Assembly: GCA_019057375.1 (NCBI GenBank)
Contig: DXJF01000029.1
Coordinates: forward strand, 1 to 35,389
DNA length: 35,389 nt
Source of the DNA: Candidatus Heimdallarchaeota archaeon
GTDB taxonomy: Archaea > Asgardarchaeota > Heimdallarchaeia > Heimdallarchaeales > Heimdallarchaeaceae
Reading direction: 5' to 3'
Shown here: positions 9,337 through 35,096 of the stretch, in pieces
How the letters are laid out: every line of letters begins with the position of its first letter
How positions within the stretch are numbered: position 1 is the first letter of the stretch
Made by a program: the position numbers and the translations under genes
Notes under the pieces: generated by a model
The model's database searches: none
Told to the model about the DNA's origin: nothing
What the model saw: only the letters and a program-made list of their open reading frames with translations

Positions 9337-10512
9337 TTAACAATGTTTTAACGGAGTTAGTACTTCCCCTGGTATCCTTCCTTTCAACGGTTCCATTTCT
9401 TTACATTCAGTGATTGTTATTTCTTCATCAAAGATGAATTTTCCAACTCTTTTCACTTCTTCCAACACTTGTTTTTTAATTGAAACCTCTGGCTTTTCTA
9501 GAAAAAATATCTTAATAGTTGATTTTTTACTACTAACAAAATCCCATATTCCTATAACTCTCCCATTAAGAAGGATTGCTGAGGTAGCATTTCCAGATTT
9601 ATCAAACAGATAACTGTAATGATCTTCTTTGACATACCTTTCTCTATCTTTATGTCCCATTAAATATGGATCTAAATCAGAAAGAAGAGTAACAACACTT
9701 TTTTCAGTTTTACTAATTGTTTGAAGTTTTTTCAAATCTTCAGATAGAATCAGGTACTCTTTGTCGATTCCTTTGATTTGAATTTTCTCAATTTGACCTT
9801 CTAATTCCTGAAGTATCCTTCTTGTTTGAGTTTTATTGAACCCAGTCCACCACACAATATCTGTTTCTGTAGCTGGACCTAGACATTCGAAATACTTTCT
9901 AACCAAGAATTTCATACTTTCTTCTTCATTGATTCCTTCAAAGCTCATTTCTGGGAAATATTCTTTGAAGAGGGAGTATGTGTGTCTCTTATCTCTCCAA
10001 CTCTTTACTGGCTTAGTTCGTATCAAGTCTAGTTGATCACACATCAAAGTAATGAAATGAGTAGTGTACTCTTTAGAACTAATTTCTTTTTTTATATCAG
10101 CTGTTGATAAAACCTTACCAGTCAAAATTCTTCTTATTGCATTTGCAGCTTTCTCATATACATCAACTGTAACTCCAAGATTCTTTAGATAATCTTCATG
10201 ACGTTTTGAATATTGTTTCTTTGTTGCTATAAATAGACGTGGAATCAGTTCTGTAGGTTGAATAAAGATTGTTTTTCTCATACATCTGATTTTTCCCAAA
10301 TTCTTCTTTTCATAGATTTCTTTTTCCAAATCTTCTTTCCTGAAATCTATAGCTCTGAAGAAAGTAGAAAGATAGGTAGTTGTCTGACTTGTAGCATGAA
10401 GTCCTCCAATATCATATACTATTTTCGAAATATCTTCAATACGTGATTCAGGAACCAAATGTTGTTTGGTTAGAATAAAGTAATTGATTTCTGAAGCTGT
10501 GAATTCATCCAT
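9337..10512 (-). CDS. HTH_42 / AlkZ-like winged-helix DNA glycosylase family protein
   Basis: GGLHATSQTTTYLS at the catalytic-motif position, RCMRKTIF, LGPATETDIVWWTG, LLSDLDPYLMGHKDR and LLNGRVIGIW. Confidence 0.85.
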   Translation of the reverse strand: MDEFTASEINYFILTKQHLVPESRIEDISKIVYDIGGLHATSQTTTYLSTFFRAIDFRKEDLEKEIYEKKNLGKIRCMRKTIFIQPTELIPRLFIATKKQYSKRHEDYLKNLGVTVDVYEKAANAIRRILTGKVLSTADIKKEISSKEYTTHFITLMCDQLDLIRTKPVKSWRDKRHTYSLFKEYFPEMSFEGINEEESMKFLVRKYFECLGPATETDIVWWTGFNKTQTRRILQELEGQIEKIQIKGIDKEYLILSEDLKKLQTISKTEKSVVTLLSDLDPYLMGHKDRERYVKEDHYSYLFDKSGNATSAILLNGRVIGIWDFVSSKKSTIKIFFLEKPEVSIKKQVLEEVKRVGKFIFDEEITITECKEMEPLKGRIPGEVLTPLKHC

Positions 10513-13593: not shown

Positions 13594-14496
13594 ATGGTAT
13601 CAGATGAAGAAAAATTCGGTAAAACAATAATTCTTTCTGATGGAAGACAATTTGGTTATATTGAAAGAGGAAATCCTGAAGACAAAGCTGTTTTTTATAT
13701 TCACGGATGGCCTAGCTCTAGATTGGAAGTGTTAGAGTGTGAATCATTTACTTCATTTTCAGGGAGTAGAATCATCTCAATAGACAGACCAGGAATTGGT
13801 TTATCTGATTTTAAGAAGAAAAGAACAATTCTTGATTTAGCTGATGATATTGTAGAACTAGCAGATTTCTTAGGCATAGAACAATTTTCTGTCTTAGGCT
13901 TATCTGGTGGTGCTCCCTTCGCACATGCATGTGCTTACAAAATCCCAGACCGTTTACATTCAGTTGGGATAGTATCAGGAATGGGACCATACTATATTAC
14001 AAAGGAGCACTTATCAGGACCAGTAGGATTTATGCTTTCTTTACTAAGAGTTGCACCTTGGTTAATGAGGTTATTTCTGGGGATTGTATTTGTAAGATCT
14101 TTGAGATCAAAAAATCAAGAAAAAGCAAAAGAAAAAATGAGAGCTAATTTAATGAGTAATTTACCAGAACCTGATGAAGAATTATTAAAAAAACCAGAAG
14201 TATTTGCTGTTACGTGGAGGCAAATGCAAGAAGCATTCACTAAAGGTGCAAAAGGACCAACTAAAGATGGTTCACTTTATACTAAACACTGGGGTTTTGA
14301 ATTAAGTGATATACCAAAAGAAGTTAAGATTTTTCTTTGGCATGGGGAAATGGATAATACTGCTCCTGTAGGCATAGGAAAAGCAGTAGCAAAAGAGATA
14401 CCTCATTGTGTAAGTAAATTTTATCCAAAAGAAGGACACTCCTCTCTACTGATGAACAATTTTGATGAAATAGTTAATACTTTACTCAATGCATAA
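13594..14496 (+). CDS. Alpha/beta hydrolase
   Basis: HGWPSSRLE, DRPGIGLS, nucleophile GLSGG, WHGEMD and EGHSS. TATATAAA lies about 22 nt upstream of the ATG. Confidence 0.9.
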   Translation: MVSDEEKFGKTIILSDGRQFGYIERGNPEDKAVFYIHGWPSSRLEVLECESFTSFSGSRIISIDRPGIGLSDFKKKRTILDLADDIVELADFLGIEQFSVLGLSGGAPFAHACAYKIPDRLHSVGIVSGMGPYYITKEHLSGPVGFMLSLLRVAPWLMRLFLGIVFVRSLRSKNQEKAKEKMRANLMSNLPEPDEELLKKPEVFAVTWRQMQEAFTKGAKGPTKDGSLYTKHWGFELSDIPKEVKIFLWHGEMDNTAPVGIGKAVAKEIPHCVSKFYPKEGHSSLLMNNFDEIVNTLLNA

Positions 14497-14962
14497 TGCA
14501 GAACTGAGCTTTCTCAAAATCTAATAACCATTTTTTCCTATCCAGTCCTCCTCCATACCCTACGAGCTTACTATTTTTACCAATTACTCTGTGACAGGGA
14601 ATGAAGATACTGATAGGATTCTGTCCGTTAGCATTACCAACAGCTCTTACAGCTGCTATATTTCCAATTTTAGAAGCAAGCTCACTATAGGAGATAACAC
14701 TACCAAATGGTATCTCAAGAAGTTTCATCCAGACTTTTTCTTGAAATTCTGTACCAGAGGGAAGCAAGGTGAGATCAAACTCTTTTCTCTTTCCTGTAAA
14801 ATACTCATCTAGCTGAAGCAAAGCTTGTTTTAGAATTGATGGAACGGTTTCAGATTGAGCTTCTTTTTCTTTGAAATTACTAGCTAGTAAGCTATTCTGG
14901 TCACTTACTATCTCTAAATTACCAATAGGGGTGTCATAATTTGTAAAGAATTTATCTGGCAT
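14486..14962 (-). CDS. ogt: Methylated-DNA--protein-cysteine methyltransferase
   Basis: Active-site PCHRV, GTEFQEKVW, RAVGNANGQNP and GYGGGLDRKKWLL. Confidence 0.97.
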   Translation of the reverse strand: MPDKFFTNYDTPIGNLEIVSDQNSLLASNFKEKEAQSETVPSILKQALLQLDEYFTGKRKEFDLTLLPSGTEFQEKVWMKLLEIPFGSVISYSELASKIGNIAAVRAVGNANGQNPISIFIPCHRVIGKNSKLVGYGGGLDRKKWLLDFEKAQFCIMH

Positions 14963-16999: not shown

Positions 17000-18360
17000 T
17001 ATTACGGGAGCTTTTATAGGGAATTCAAGGGAGAAGGGTGATGACAAAAGTACTGAGAGTGGAATGTATAGAACTCCCCTATCACCAAGCTCTAAGCACA
17101 CTTTGTCATCAAGTGAAAAACCTCTATAATCGAGCGAATTATCTAGTAAAGCAATCGTTGAGTAAGAAGAGCAAGTTGCTAGTGTACTATGACCTCAACA
17201 CCTTACTTAAGGAAGAAGCGTGTTACAAAACCCTTCCCGCACATACTGCACAACATACCCTCAAGCTCCTTTGCAGAAATTGGAAAGGATATTTTCGTGC
17301 ACTGAAGGAATGGAAAAAGAATCCTGCATTGTTCTTCGCTATGCCTCAACATCCTAACTACAAAGCGAAAGATGGGGAAGTTGTAGCTATCTTCACCAAC
17401 CAACAAGCGAGGATAATAAATGGCTGGCTAGTCCTTCCTAAGAAAGTAGGCTTCTATTACAAAACTCGACTGACAGCGCGTACCACGTTGAAAGAAGTAA
17501 GAATTGTCCCACGACGAGTGGGTTACACTCTCGAACTAGTGTATGAGAAAGTCTTACCTAAACCACGAAAACGGTTTACCAGGAAAGGTGCGATCGATTT
17601 AGGATCTATCAACTTTGTAGCCTTTGTGGATAACCTCGGCAATCAACCGATTGTTATCAAGGATCACGGGAAAGGGATAAGAAGTATTATCCAATATTAT
17701 TTGAAACAACAAACACAATTAAGATTACAATATGTCCAGCAGCAAAAACAGCAATTAAAAACAAGGAACAAACTCAGCTATGGTCCAGCCTATTATCATC
17801 TTCGTGAGAAGTGGCGCAAAAAACTCAAAGATGCTATCCACAAACTCACAAGATATTTAGTAGACTTGTGGGTTGAACGGAACTTACATGAAGTCATTAT
17901 CGGTTATAATGAGAAATGGAAACAGAATGTCCATTTCTGGAAAAAGATCACCCAGATGTTCGTAGCTATTCCCTTCATGAAAATTATTCACCAGTTACAG
18001 TATAAAGCGGCTGAACATGGGATAAAGGTTGAGCTTATACCCGAAAAGTATACTTCTAAGTGTAGCTTTCTGGATAATGAGTTTCCCAGGTCTAGGGAGA
18101 AGTATGCTGGACGTAGAATTACTCGAGGGTTGTTTAAATCTGCACAAGGTCATCTGATCAATGCTGATGTCAATGCTGCATACAATATTTTAATCAAAAG
18201 CGATCCGAAAGCATTGCCTAAACGGCGTGCGAACGGGGTAGGAGGATACGTGATGTATCCACGTAGAGTGAGTGTTGACCCATAATGACCTCTCCAAAAG
18301 ACATTCGACTATGCTTGGTTAATATGCCAAGATGACATAAACTCATCATTTTGAGAAAGA
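17000..18360 (+). mobile_element. Non-autonomous tnpB-only (IS1341-like) element; ends not defined
   Basis: tnpB has no adjacent tnpA or serine recombinase, and a hairpin-rich segment sits at and after the tnpB 3' end. Boundaries are approximate. Confidence 0.55.
17038..18285 (+). CDS. tnpB: TnpB RNA-guided endonuclease (IS200/IS605-IS607 superfamily), rearranged-RuvC subtype
   Basis: N-terminal KNLYNRANY and RNWKGYF. RuvC-I AIDLG, VIIGYNEKWKQ, PEKYTSKCSFLD, RITRGLF and RuvC-III NADVNAAYNI. Confidence 0.93.
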   Translation: MMTKVLRVECIELPYHQALSTLCHQVKNLYNRANYLVKQSLSKKSKLLVYYDLNTLLKEEACYKTLPAHTAQHTLKLLCRNWKGYFRALKEWKKNPALFFAMPQHPNYKAKDGEVVAIFTNQQARIINGWLVLPKKVGFYYKTRLTARTTLKEVRIVPRRVGYTLELVYEKVLPKPRKRFTRKGAIDLGSINFVAFVDNLGNQPIVIKDHGKGIRSIIQYYLKQQTQLRLQYVQQQKQQLKTRNKLSYGPAYYHLREKWRKKLKDAIHKLTRYLVDLWVERNLHEVIIGYNEKWKQNVHFWKKITQMFVAIPFMKIIHQLQYKAAEHGIKVELIPEKYTSKCSFLDNEFPRSREKYAGRRITRGLFKSAQGHLINADVNAAYNILIKSDPKALPKRRANGVGGYVMYPRRVSVDP

Positions 18361-32600: not shown

Positions 32601-32814
32601 CTTGGTTTTTCTTAAAAATATTTAAATCCCGAGGTACAAGTATATTTGAATCAGATGAATACCTCAATAATTCATTATTTCTATAAGTAACATTTGAAAT
32701 CTGTTTTGTAGATATTTCATTCAACAATTCTTTATCATCAGTTTGAGGTACTAAGTGTTGCATTAATTCTTTAATTCGATCCTCTAAACTGGAAGTTATT
32801 TTTGTTATTTTCAT
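29611..32814 (-). CDS. drmA: DrmA-like superfamily 2 helicase
   Basis: YTFQWEAI, APTGTGKT, PTRILNEDMFKRL, GLHIG, IATPDKL, DEIH, GTAT, LANLVISLGVDI, GVPRTMTEFVQTAGRTGR and PRDLFWYENF match DrmA-type motif spacing. Confidence 0.85.
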   Translation of the reverse strand: MKITKITSSLEDRIKELMQHLVPQTDDKELLNEISTKQISNVTYRNNELLRYSSDSNILVPRDLNIFKKNQAWRYPPNVMCNFHIEKNQDVILKIKGGFGIVKYLRYGEYRKTKTSTQKRYLSNPQIDLPDEFSNLEINGENYQLLDNGKFMIKSVSPDNYEFDYEIKIDELAKEEEGEIVETISIEKTVETIKSLDDLAFVDLISGQANVKLVLRIIKKKNVDNSIRIEISLVNETDIDVKPHRFPDELKWRTSILILPFLDISVVNSNFIIPPQQHAEVLKSQLRASSRDNNLGTDDAQLYYEQYNCVLTKSTIDLRKILILPFGVFDMIREEPSIGPNLGLLISSKENLLKNMNLLTKEHLEKIKIDYTFEIIKNILKSAKDGFQIENLYTFQWEAIQNRIIKLLNDEKSSVTIIKAPTGTGKTIVFMVNAALHSLLKEQRSVLAFPTRILNEDMFKRLTAFIYHLRKNLQNNEITGGLHIGQYDPLFRAMSDITEGQLMIQYDLCPKCKSRNQVHAKLVNSRMIGVCDNCDHHIDYMFRPTALTGEAEEYIPLMTIATPDKLFYEATVAGYELGHLRFFGGSYQRCSCGFCIPLMNPNKESIVCNKCNKNVHLDKIENSPIGYFVFDEIHSLYGLTGILLSVFLKTLKIMSDKIIGNKYYKDGFISDLTFETGTATIANDVELLSKITRSSNISVFPKDSNRSKYFKINDSKVRYRTVLILPVSRSSRTTVSNALMHTFIDLHETKELKQKINNVNKNDILAYDFILGYLYRKRDGYSLRKALIDMSRKNLGYEILIDFLSGDSKTVQISEILTKAINGDIKLLLANLVISLGVDIENLNNMIMLGVPRTMTEFVQTAGRTGRGVFPGHVVIHLLPSIPRDLFWYENFHSVMSDVKGYFDVKPTEQSNAFATRLLLPNIMKAIIAAQSYRGFNQYSLTAPSFTKNIGANSNRQKALEYDILNAMVESSSNKDLIREIALIIRKGIIKYIQLFRVRKGPNQYIANILKEEDEFLFSLRAKTERDVILCISDVKLYEVLEKQRNYMFSFYEEDDLLTANEVDEDN

Positions 32815-35096
32815 TTTCCCCTCGTCTCACTTTGAGTTTCTCTTCCATACAAAGTTATTACAAATTTAACAGCTTTCACATTATATCCTTTCTCATGAGT
32901 TATTTGAGTATTATCTCTAGAGATATGGGGGGCCATATGAGCAAACATTCTCTTTAATTTTAATACAATCCTATGAGCTTTTGCTATTCTTCTTCCACTA
33001 GCCAACAAGTTTACAGTCCCATTATTCTGTAGAACATTCTTTGCGAACCAGAAATAATTCAGTTCATCTTTTTTTCCAACATAAACATCTTTTCCAGTAA
33101 AGCTTTCATCTTTATTTATCATCATATGATTGTAATAATCTAGTTTACGTACACTCATTTCTTGACCATGTTCCAATTTAACAGAAAAAATTAGATTCTG
33201 AATATCATCATAATTTTTGTATTCATTATCAGATACTATAATGTGCTCCTTTTGAAAAATAGCATATGAGTATGTTAGTGGATGAATTAGAGCAGAATTT
33301 TCATTTATTAAAGACCAAAACATATAACAACGATTATCTTTTGATGCAATTTTATGAGGAAACGAGGGATCTGCCACATTTTGGATCATCTTTTGAAAAA
33401 AATCACGACTAGTACAATTGTAAATGTAGTAGACATTGCCTTTATATTCGAAAATATATCCTTCCTCTATAAGTTGTATAACTAATTTCTCCAATTGTTC
33501 TGTAGGAACTATACATTTTAACGAAATTAGTCTCTCTTTCGAAATAAAGCCAAAGTACTTAACCAAAGCAACAATATTTGCTTTGAAGGCCTCATCTTTT
33601 TTCAAAAATCGAATAGAAAAATTGTCAACTGCATAGAAAGCTTTGTTCTTCTGCTTAGATTTCTTAAAAGCAAAGAAATCATTTCTTAAAAGCACACTTA
33701 TCCATCCTCCTGACTTTAAATCATGAAAAGTATCTATGTTGTATTTGTAAGTATGAAAATCCCATTTAATAGTAAATCTATTTCCAAAAATATCTTTAAC
33801 AATGGTTACAGGTGTAGGAGAGCTTATTTCCAAGTTACGTTCGATTCTAACAATAGCTAAAAAAAATCTACTTAATTCATAATGACCTTTCCAATTCCCC
33901 ATATCGATATTGAAAGCTTGAAGATATCCTTTTTGTGAGAGTATAAATTCGATAGAAGGAATCCCTGTTGATAACATAAATGATCTTGATATCAACTCGG
34001 GATCTCTTTCATCAAATAAAATAGTATCTCTTGTTCCAGTATTTTTCAATCTTCCTAAATATGGATAGATTCTCCATCTTTTCAAAGTAACTTTCTTCAA
34101 ACGAACTTCAAATAAATTCGTACTTCCAAATTTAATTCTCTTCGGATATATGGATGTTGGCCAATGGAGAAATAATTCTAGATCTGGTATATACAGTTTA
34201 TAATAATTTGTTTTCCAGTTATTAGTAGATGATAAAGGATTAGCTTTGTATATAATTCCTGTTATTTCTGGATCAATTTCAAATTCATCTAAATAGGACC
34301 AGTCAAAATATGAGGTTATATTATCTATTAAATAATTTAAGAAGTTTTTAGCAATAATATTCTCTTTATCTACTTGCTCAAAAAGCAGCTCCAAATCTTT
34401 TACAAATGAAGTACCTTCAATATATCTGAAATTTCTTTCATATAGTGCTAATATGAAATTTTCAATTTCTGATTCACTTTTAAGATAATAACTATATGAT
34501 TTGGAAAGAATAGAAGAAATAAGTGATGCAATTGTTTCTATACTAATTTCTGTTTCTTCCATTGAAGGTTCGGTTTCAATAAAATCATCTTTATACTCTA
34601 CCCAGATTCTTGCTGTATGAAAAATGCTGTATATTTTATGCATATCTTTTTCATTAAAACAAAGGAAATTTGTTGATTTTTCATCAGATTGAACATGAAG
34701 AGCTCTAGTTATCAAGTCTTTATATATTTGCTCAGGAAGAAAAACTTTTCGTATATCTACATAAACTATTTTTTCTTTCAGAACAGCGGGAATTTTAAAG
34801 ATACCTGGAGAATATTGATAACCATGAATGATAGCTTCATTTCTCTTTTGAGCTTTCAAATCTTCGTCTATACATATGTAATAATACTGTTGTTTACTAC
34901 TCGGAATCAATTTTCTAACTACCCAGTTATTACGAAATAATACAAAAAAGGAATCATTACTATTATCTTTCTTGACTTTCAAGAAATCCCAGGATCTTGT
35001 CTTTGGATTAAAGAATTGCCAGAAATCACCTTTTGATACGCTGAAAAGAAAATATGCTCCAAGTTTTTCTTTAAAAGCGAACTGATCTAATTTCAT
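32811..35096 (-). CDS. Large unknown protein with a C-terminal Alba domain (possible OB-fold and wHTH upstream)
   Basis: Residues ~670-755, VYVGKKDELNY...VNLLASGRRIAKA...NVKAVKFVI, align with Alba (VLIGKKPVMNY...IVIKARGRAISKA). ATGA overlap with the helicase gene; GGTGGT upstream of the ATG. Confidence 0.75.
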   Translation of the reverse strand: MKLDQFAFKEKLGAYFLFSVSKGDFWQFFNPKTRSWDFLKVKKDNSNDSFFVLFRNNWVVRKLIPSSKQQYYYICIDEDLKAQKRNEAIIHGYQYSPGIFKIPAVLKEKIVYVDIRKVFLPEQIYKDLITRALHVQSDEKSTNFLCFNEKDMHKIYSIFHTARIWVEYKDDFIETEPSMEETEISIETIASLISSILSKSYSYYLKSESEIENFILALYERNFRYIEGTSFVKDLELLFEQVDKENIIAKNFLNYLIDNITSYFDWSYLDEFEIDPEITGIIYKANPLSSTNNWKTNYYKLYIPDLELFLHWPTSIYPKRIKFGSTNLFEVRLKKVTLKRWRIYPYLGRLKNTGTRDTILFDERDPELISRSFMLSTGIPSIEFILSQKGYLQAFNIDMGNWKGHYELSRFFLAIVRIERNLEISSPTPVTIVKDIFGNRFTIKWDFHTYKYNIDTFHDLKSGGWISVLLRNDFFAFKKSKQKNKAFYAVDNFSIRFLKKDEAFKANIVALVKYFGFISKERLISLKCIVPTEQLEKLVIQLIEEGYIFEYKGNVYYIYNCTSRDFFQKMIQNVADPSFPHKIASKDNRCYMFWSLINENSALIHPLTYSYAIFQKEHIIVSDNEYKNYDDIQNLIFSVKLEHGQEMSVRKLDYYNHMMINKDESFTGKDVYVGKKDELNYFWFAKNVLQNNGTVNLLASGRRIAKAHRIVLKLKRMFAHMAPHISRDNTQITHEKGYNVKAVKFVITLYGRETQSETRGK

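Follow-up and report, generated by a model that had tools for sequence, protein, structure and literature searches.

DISARM systems have been defined by a core of drmA, drmB and drmC, complemented by a methyltransferase, drmMI (N6A) or drmMII (C5), and by either the SNF2 helicase gene drmD in class 1 or drmE in class 2 (Ofir et al., 2018, via PMC11529989), and DISARM is known to act on DNA (PMC9142583). The Dpd system is delimited by the DpdA transglycosylase in combination with DpdB, DpdC and DpdJ, a YprA-like helicase of the unsplit type, for which an ALBA-like domain at the C-terminus and a winged helix-turn-helix (wHTH) at the N-terminus have been described (Bell et al., 2025, PMC12458937). 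Furthermore, AlbA-family domain proteins are reported to adjoin archaeal Argonautes (PMC13477220), and a census of 2024 comprising more than 15,000 Alba proteins contains no mention retrievable by text search for defence, helicase and fusion terms (PMC11621453). Here, a stretch of 35,389 nucleotides (nt) from Candidatus Heimdallarchaeota archaeon (assembly GCA_019057375.1, contig DXJF01000029.1, positions 1 to 35,389), in its full length called the window, is compared with these systems. The last long open reading frame (ORF) of the window, gene X, starts with ATG, encodes 761 amino acids (aa) with an Alba fold at the C-terminus and is the first gene in an operon of the order X-DrmA-DrmB-DrmC-DpdA-like with all five genes on the minus strand. 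We regard X, at a probability of roughly 0.6, as a new accessory subunit that binds DNA within a DISARM-like (DrmA-DrmB-DrmC) class not yet characterised; the X family and this operon type appear to be undescribed in the literature searched, as full-text searches returned a description neither of the family nor of an operon that combines DrmABC with a DpdA-like gene.

The drmA, drmB and drmC core of DISARM is represented by the three genes downstream of X (Table 1). The TGA stop codon of X overlaps the ATG of drmA as ATGA, a 4-nt overlap also seen in the related locus L007, and X is translationally coupled to DrmA. In the position where DISARM has its methyltransferase, directly after drmC, a DpdA-like gene is found instead, the product of which is 45% identical to its counterpart in the related locus L004, a protein that bears Pfam DUF6884. 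A DNA-modification methyltransferase was detected neither in the window (Pfam, PADLOC) nor in the 10 kb upstream (precomputed Pfam annotation of a near-identical public contig). The G+C content of the operon, 29-31%, is slightly below that of most of the window (31-38%). As for the Dpd system, the components present here are the DpdA-like gene alone (PADLOC 8.9e-12) and a helicase of the split DrmA/DrmB type, with DpdB and DpdC not sought in the genome, and X has no match to the PADLOC DpdJ models at E<=0.1.

Equally, neither form of the class-defining DISARM component is recognisable, as X possesses no helicase domain and no match to a DrmE model. Like X, DrmE (NF038316, PF24957) is a large protein of unknown function encoded with drmA, drmB and drmC. 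X might be a DrmE that has diverged very far, which would make the operon a class 2 DISARM system of the ordinary kind with a replaced methylase, a reading with which the similar lengths (761 versus ~840 aa), the company of a C5 DNA methylase kept by distant X members as in class 2, and the first position of the archaeal-clade X genes, reportedly shared by class 2 drmE, would agree. We regard this as very unlikely, as X has no match to NF038316 DrmE_fam at E<=10, none of 33 X-family members matches the DrmE or DrmE_C models of NCBIfam (E<=0.1), PADLOC (E<=0.01) or Pfam (E<=0.01), and hhalign of the X family against a DrmE-family alignment gives a probability of 0.05%, whereas a separate 870-aa gene, encoded on a different contig of this genome and serving as positive control, reaches 76.4 bits with DrmE_fam and 58 bits with DrmE_C. 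Moreover, X of the distant clade comes after drmC and not before drmA. Judged by sequence and profiles alone, X is no detectable relative of DrmE. The contig with the control gene (L015; G000 contig C109, 1-14128) constitutes a second defence island of the genome, which holds the pVip viperin (2.9e-83), a Mokosh MkoA-like helicase, a two-PLD protein and two type II methyltransferases besides the 870-aa protein; DrmA or DrmB were not seen on this contig.

The association of X with DrmABC extends beyond the window. In each of the 11 loci whose flanking DNA is long enough (the window, L004, L005, L006, L007, L008/L009, L010, L011, L016, L018 and L019), X directly adjoins a DEAD/Helicase_C helicase of ~1000-1100 aa, a protein of ~550-640 aa and a PLD protein, which are named DrmA, DrmB and DrmC by PADLOC in the window, L007, L008 and L010; the linkage of homologues to drmAB, on which a first-pass annotation of the window had made its reading depend, is thereby borne out. 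Two gene orders occur. The order X-A-B-C followed by the DpdA-like/DUF6884 gene is found in the window, in L004-L007 and, as far as its cut end allows, in L016, and the order A-B-C-X in L008, L010, L011, L018 and L019. In the latter group, DrmABC and X are accompanied by a C5 DNA methylase and an HhH-GPD glycosylase in L008 (2878-4534) and L010 (12517-14447), by a D12-class methylase and a ParB_N protein in L011 (6579-8464), and by a PAPS-reductase-family gene in L018 (1-2086) and L019 (1070-2203), with a WYL regulator in L018. The four-gene core of DrmABC and X is constant and the presumed self-marking module is exchanged. In the first group, the DpdA-like gene follows drmC at 9475-10950 in L004 and at 18051-19358 in L007 (PADLOC 1.8e-11 in L007), homologues of the window's DpdA-like protein bear Pfam DUF6884 at the C-terminus, and in L005 (11788-13876) a gene of the Vut_1 family (YhhQ-type queuosine-precursor transporters) lies directly after the DpdA-like gene. 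The gene content of these loci points to a self mark of the 7-deazaguanine type, which would replace methylation. A 630-aa radical-SAM gene has additionally been noted near the DpdA-like gene of L004.

The architecture of X was derived from an AlphaFold2 model based on a 33-sequence family alignment (mean predicted local distance difference test score, pLDDT, of 87; predicted template modelling score of 0.89), with secondary structure assigned by DSSP. In the model, an N-terminal beta domain and a helical bundle precede two OB folds in tandem; a winged helix comes next, and a long linker of helices leads to the Alba fold at the C-terminus. For the N-terminal domain (15-170) and the helical bundle (186-271), the latter including the invariant Y201, PDB searches including Foldseek gave no clear match and the protein atlas nothing usable. 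Residues 262-499, on the other hand, align with the two consecutive OB folds of the HIN-200 proteins AIM2, IFI16 and p202 and with RPA, POT1, TEBP and CST; the match of the tandem OB folds to HIN-200 domains has a Foldseek probability of 1.0 at a template modelling (TM) score of ~0.42, and such middling scores indicate the fold and not the function. Within OB fold 1 lies the strongest conservation of the entire family, the motif WRIYPYLGRLKNTGTR (341-356). The winged-helix topology comprises helices 500-515, 520-524 and 532-545 and strands 517-519, 548-551 and 554-557, and H605 and P606 in the subsequent linker are nearly invariant. When the full model was compared by shape with the ESM Atlas, weak rows alone were returned, with TM <0.5, one of them an Alba-bearing archaeal cluster.

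The Alba nature of the C-terminus emerges from several comparisons, with a weak though consistent signal in the sequence and strong evidence from the structure. Pfam PF01918 scores the whole of X with E 2e-4 and 21.5 bits, under the 25-bit gathering cut-off, and residues 655-761 alone with 25.4 bits, so that the score straddles the cut-off; five of five close homologues match, and of the 33 family members only 6 do so at E<=0.01. When a profile of five C-termini was compared with PDB sequences, all 12 matches were Alba-family proteins (eleven archaeal Alba proteins and At2g34160; best E 4.3e-4). BLASTP aligns X with the host Alba at E 3e-5 across the GKK...ARGRxISKA stretch. In an alignment with the host Alba proteins, V-G-K-K-D-E-L-N-Y and A-S-G-R-R-I-A-K-A of X stand opposite I-G-K-K-G-T-M-N-Y and A-R-G-R-S-I-S-K-A, and the domain reaches an identity of only 22-25%. 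The modelled elements b1 (670-672), a1 (678-692), b2 (694-700), a2 (701-717), b3 (724-733) and b4 (739-748) form the b1-a1-b2-a2-b3-b4 topology superposable on solved Alba structures, and Alba proteins are the top Foldseek matches of the X model in the PDB. The X C-terminus is a genuine Alba fold. The lysine pair after b1 and the R-G-R-x-I-S-K-A loop before a2 are both present, with the first arginine of the loop replaced by serine in X. Within the close clade, G674, K676, G701, R703, I704, K706, A707 and F718 are invariant; G674-K675-K676 presumably corresponds to G15-K16-K17, A699-S-G-R-R-I-A-K-A707 to A41-R-G-R-A-I-S-K-A49 and F718 to F60 of Sso10b. As both the canonical lysine that contacts nucleic acid and the G-R loop are kept in the archaeal clade, the domain has probably retained its binding to nucleic acid there.

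These results confirm the observation of the first-pass annotation, and partly support its interpretation. The ORF is as described there, the C-terminal peptide quoted as Alba comprises residues ~670-750 (32847-33098), and Pfam, the PDB profile search, the AlphaFold2 model and Foldseek agree on the assignment; the segments suspected to be OB-like and wHTH-like both fall into domains so assigned (the wHTH by DSSP of the model alone), and X is, as judged by its predicted domain folds, of the multi-domain nucleic-acid-binding type that had been proposed. The statement that Alba fusions were undescribed among defence components is, on the other hand, outdated by the Dpd helicase. DpdJ resembles X in the combination of a C-terminal Alba-type domain with a wHTH and in belonging to a DISARM-related, PLD-associated system with DpdA-type DNA modification, yet its Alba-like domain is fused to a helicase-OB-CON-DUF1998 protein, whereas X is a separate, helicase-less protein with tandem OB folds of its own. 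In contrast to archaeal Alba/Sso10b (PF01918; 1nh9, 1h0x, 3wbm), a free, abundant and dimeric chromatin protein of ~90-100 aa, the domain of X is the C-terminal part of a 761-aa defence-operon protein, scores at the Pfam cut-off and has a serine at Arg42 of the ARGR motif. The host genome separately encodes two canonical Alba genes, which score 68 and 56 bits in a genome-wide Alba search compared with 25.8 bits for the X C-terminus.

The X family is rare, as an exhaustive profile search at E<=1e-3 among 1.84 billion representatives recovered 42 clusters; X has four full-length homologues at 33-37% identity. In the A-B-C-X clade, the C-terminal domain is a homologue of the close-clade domain (hhalign 96.5%, E 7.9e-10, 82 columns) and weakly matches a PDB Alba (2h9u, E 0.0047). 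One carrier of this domain, P0013 in L008, derives from a genome with HU and without an Alba match, which identifies it as bacterial. The Alba domain is old in the X family and ancestral to it, usually retained, sometimes lost and not bound to hosts with Alba chromatin. A natural split form of X, 648 aa followed by a 99-aa Alba piece, was considered for the metagenomic homologue in L016 and rejected, since the downstream frame is open and homologous upstream of its ATG; together with the break at a T7A7 run, this indicates a frameshift and not a true split. For the break, at 2100-2300, a sequencing error, a pseudogene and a slippery site are all conceivable explanations. A search for related loci with a five-row alignment returned one short contig, labelled Dehalococcoidia. 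L012 (DAOUDQ010000291.1, 3.1 kb), from a Dehalococcoidia metagenome-assembled genome (MAG) bin, encodes a close X homologue with 37% identity over residues 12-474; the MAG, which is incomplete, has neither an Alba nor an HU match, and the binning of the 3.1-kb contig is doubtful. Variant architectures have also been observed. P0042 (305 aa) has a tandem pair of Alba domains of the 'IGKKDE..Y' type, the closest to the X domain; in P0036 (171 aa), which may represent a chimera or a remnant, a PAS-like N-terminus is combined with the final ~75 residues of an Alba domain of the X type; and P0011 (1017 aa), an X homologue, is extended at its N-terminus by an additional ~285 residues.

Several of the family-wide observations weigh against the role proposed for X. 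The GKK and G-R-x-I-x-K-A motifs are not kept in distant members. The genes of P0029 and P0031, both complete at ~650 residues, end before the Alba domain, with no Alba remnant found downstream by hidden Markov model search of six-frame translations and by hhalign of the 114-aa neighbour. The absence of the domain from one subclade makes Alba an add-on and not the core of X, and the Alba domain is not essential to the role of the X family. As, furthermore, the N-terminal fold is unassigned and none of the family-invariant residues, Y201, P345, G348, E383, R410 and D435, falls within the Alba domain, X may have an activity that has escaped recognition.

The retention of the Alba domain in most members can be viewed in different ways. 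F60 mediates dimer-dimer contacts in Alba fibres, and the phenylalanine at this position is conserved in the archaeal close clade together with the residues aligned with Alba K17, G43, R44, K48 and A49; in a genome with two canonical Alba genes, X might thus join or read Alba-coated chromatin as a hetero-dimer or co-polymer, or else detect Alba-free DNA, with the chromatin status, and not base modification alone, telling self from invader. This explanation, which is highly improbable to us, meets the homologous C-terminal domain of P0013 in a genome with HU and no Alba match, the close homologue in the Dehalococcoidia-labelled MAG without an Alba match (the MAG being incomplete and the contig short), the subclade that does without the domain altogether and the identity to the host Alba given above. 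A complex prediction for the X Alba domain (alignment A7) with the host Alba (L001) gave a score of 0.04 and a mark of 0.32 without controls and is taken as evidence in neither direction. The bacterial HU-genome member and the Alba-less subclade make a general dependence on host Alba unlikely, and co-polymerisation with Alba or sensing of Alba-free DNA, as envisaged in the first-pass annotation, does not hold as a general function. The host-chromatin idea is weakened as a general explanation and may still apply to the archaeal clade with the canonical contact residues. That the archaeal X plugs into or reads Alba chromatin, and that the system tells chromatinised self from naked viral DNA, has the slimmest of prospects; if true, a prokaryotic immunity based on chromatin state would be layered on a self mark of the 7-deazaguanine type.

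The Alba superfamily equally has an RNA-binding side, represented by Rpp20/25, Pop6/7 and Alba-RNA complexes. The Alba domain of X could therefore bind RNA, such as viral transcripts, R-loops or a guide-like RNA, and not DNA, and RNA binding is indeed regarded as the original role of the superfamily (PMC11621453). Such a role is nevertheless unlikely considering that DISARM is known to act on DNA (PMC9142583) and that the neighbouring domains of X match binders of single-stranded and double-stranded DNA (SSB, RPA, POT1, HIN); an RNA gene was not seen beside the operon, although none was searched for.

Alternatively, the Alba domain might mainly dimerise X or dock it on another subunit and take no part itself in contacts with nucleic acid. 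Alba proteins are obligate dimers, in which the region after a2 and the b3-b4 hairpin form the dimer and dimer-dimer interfaces, and it is the stretch after helix a2, with R716, F718, A719, M721, P723 and R727, that is the best conserved of the domain in the close clade; distant members, moreover, lose the basic DNA-contact motifs and keep the fold pattern. The invariance of K676 and of the G-R-x-I-x-K-A loop in the close clade would, however, be unexpected for a pure assembly role, which we judge to be rather unlikely.

As a DNA-binding accessory subunit, X would fill the niche of DrmD or DrmE in the two described DISARM classes. Its OB folds may hold the incoming DNA at single strands or at junctions of single and double strands, and the wHTH and the Alba domain may hold the duplex in a non-sequence-specific manner. 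X might then load the DrmAB helicase together with the PLD nuclease onto DNA without the mark of the operon, or license them to act there, with self DNA marked by the modification gene that accompanies the module, here putatively the DpdA-like base-exchange enzyme. The recruitment of DrmAB by X is plausible from the gene arrangement because of translational coupling and strict linkage.

Other genes of the window are included in Table 1. The RING-finger gene that comes after the operon is kept in the near-identical contig L021, is not found beside the operon in the other loci and is probably outside the conserved module. An AlkZ-like DNA glycosylase, an Ogt-type O6-methylguanine methyltransferase and a TnpB are encoded elsewhere in the window, and a second TnpB lies ~3 kb upstream of X in L022.

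Table 1. Coordinates of gene X, its predicted domains, the other genes of the operon and further genes in the window
Feature	Position	Strand	Basis or remark
Gene X, 761 aa	32811..35096	-	ORF list
N-terminal beta-rich domain, residues ~15-170	34587..35054	-	Confidently modelled
Helical bundle, residues ~186-271	34284..34541	-	Helices 186-203, 208-220, 229-243, 247-260 (DSSP of models)
OB fold 1, residues ~275-370	33987..34274	-	Structure comparison
OB fold 2, residues 371-499	33600..33986	-	Includes the segment 'IVKDIFGN...GGWISV', earlier read as OB-like
Winged-helix-like unit, residues 500-557	33426..33599	-	DSSP of model alone; includes the segment 'ISKERLISL...EEGYIF' (517-549), earlier read as wHTH-like
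Helical linker, residues 564-661	33114..33407	-	DSSP; 39-residue helix at 623-661
Alba-fold domain, residues 667-750	32847..33098	-	Pfam, PDB profile search, AlphaFold2 model, Foldseek, host Alba alignment
C-terminal tail (11 residues) and stop codon	32811..32846	-	pLDDT <50 at residues 753-761; tail missing from homologues
DrmA-like SF2 helicase, 1067 aa	29611..32814	-	PADLOC DrmA 1.3e-77; Pfam DEAD and Helicase_C
DrmB-like protein, 607 aa	27801..29624	-	PADLOC DrmB 1.6e-24
DrmC-like PLD nuclease, 292 aa	26923..27801	-	PADLOC DrmC 1e-25; Pfam PLDc_2
DpdA-like (TGT-fold) protein, 492 aa	25448..26926	-	PADLOC DpdA 8.9e-12
RING-finger protein, 502 aa	23719-25227	-	C-terminal RING finger (zf-RING_2 1.1e-8)
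AlkZ-like DNA glycosylase	9337-10512	-	1.6e-46
Ogt-type O6-methylguanine methyltransferase	14486-14962	-	
TnpB	17038-18285	+	OrfB_IS605 and Cas12f1-like TNB

DrmD and DrmE are the least understood parts of DISARM. To the question of how DrmAB reaches the invading DNA, X would offer a third solution with a legible structure, namely a protein without a helicase but with two OB folds, a wHTH and an Alba domain; it provides clear targets for mutation and suggests that a modular restriction core of DrmABC and X exists among the uncharacterised DISARM-like classes acknowledged in the YprA survey of 2025. X would represent a second, independent recruitment of Alba into DISARM/Dpd-type immunity. Equally, the X family puts an Alba-fold domain inside a bacterial defence protein, a setting for which the text search of the Alba-domain census of 2024 gave no mention.

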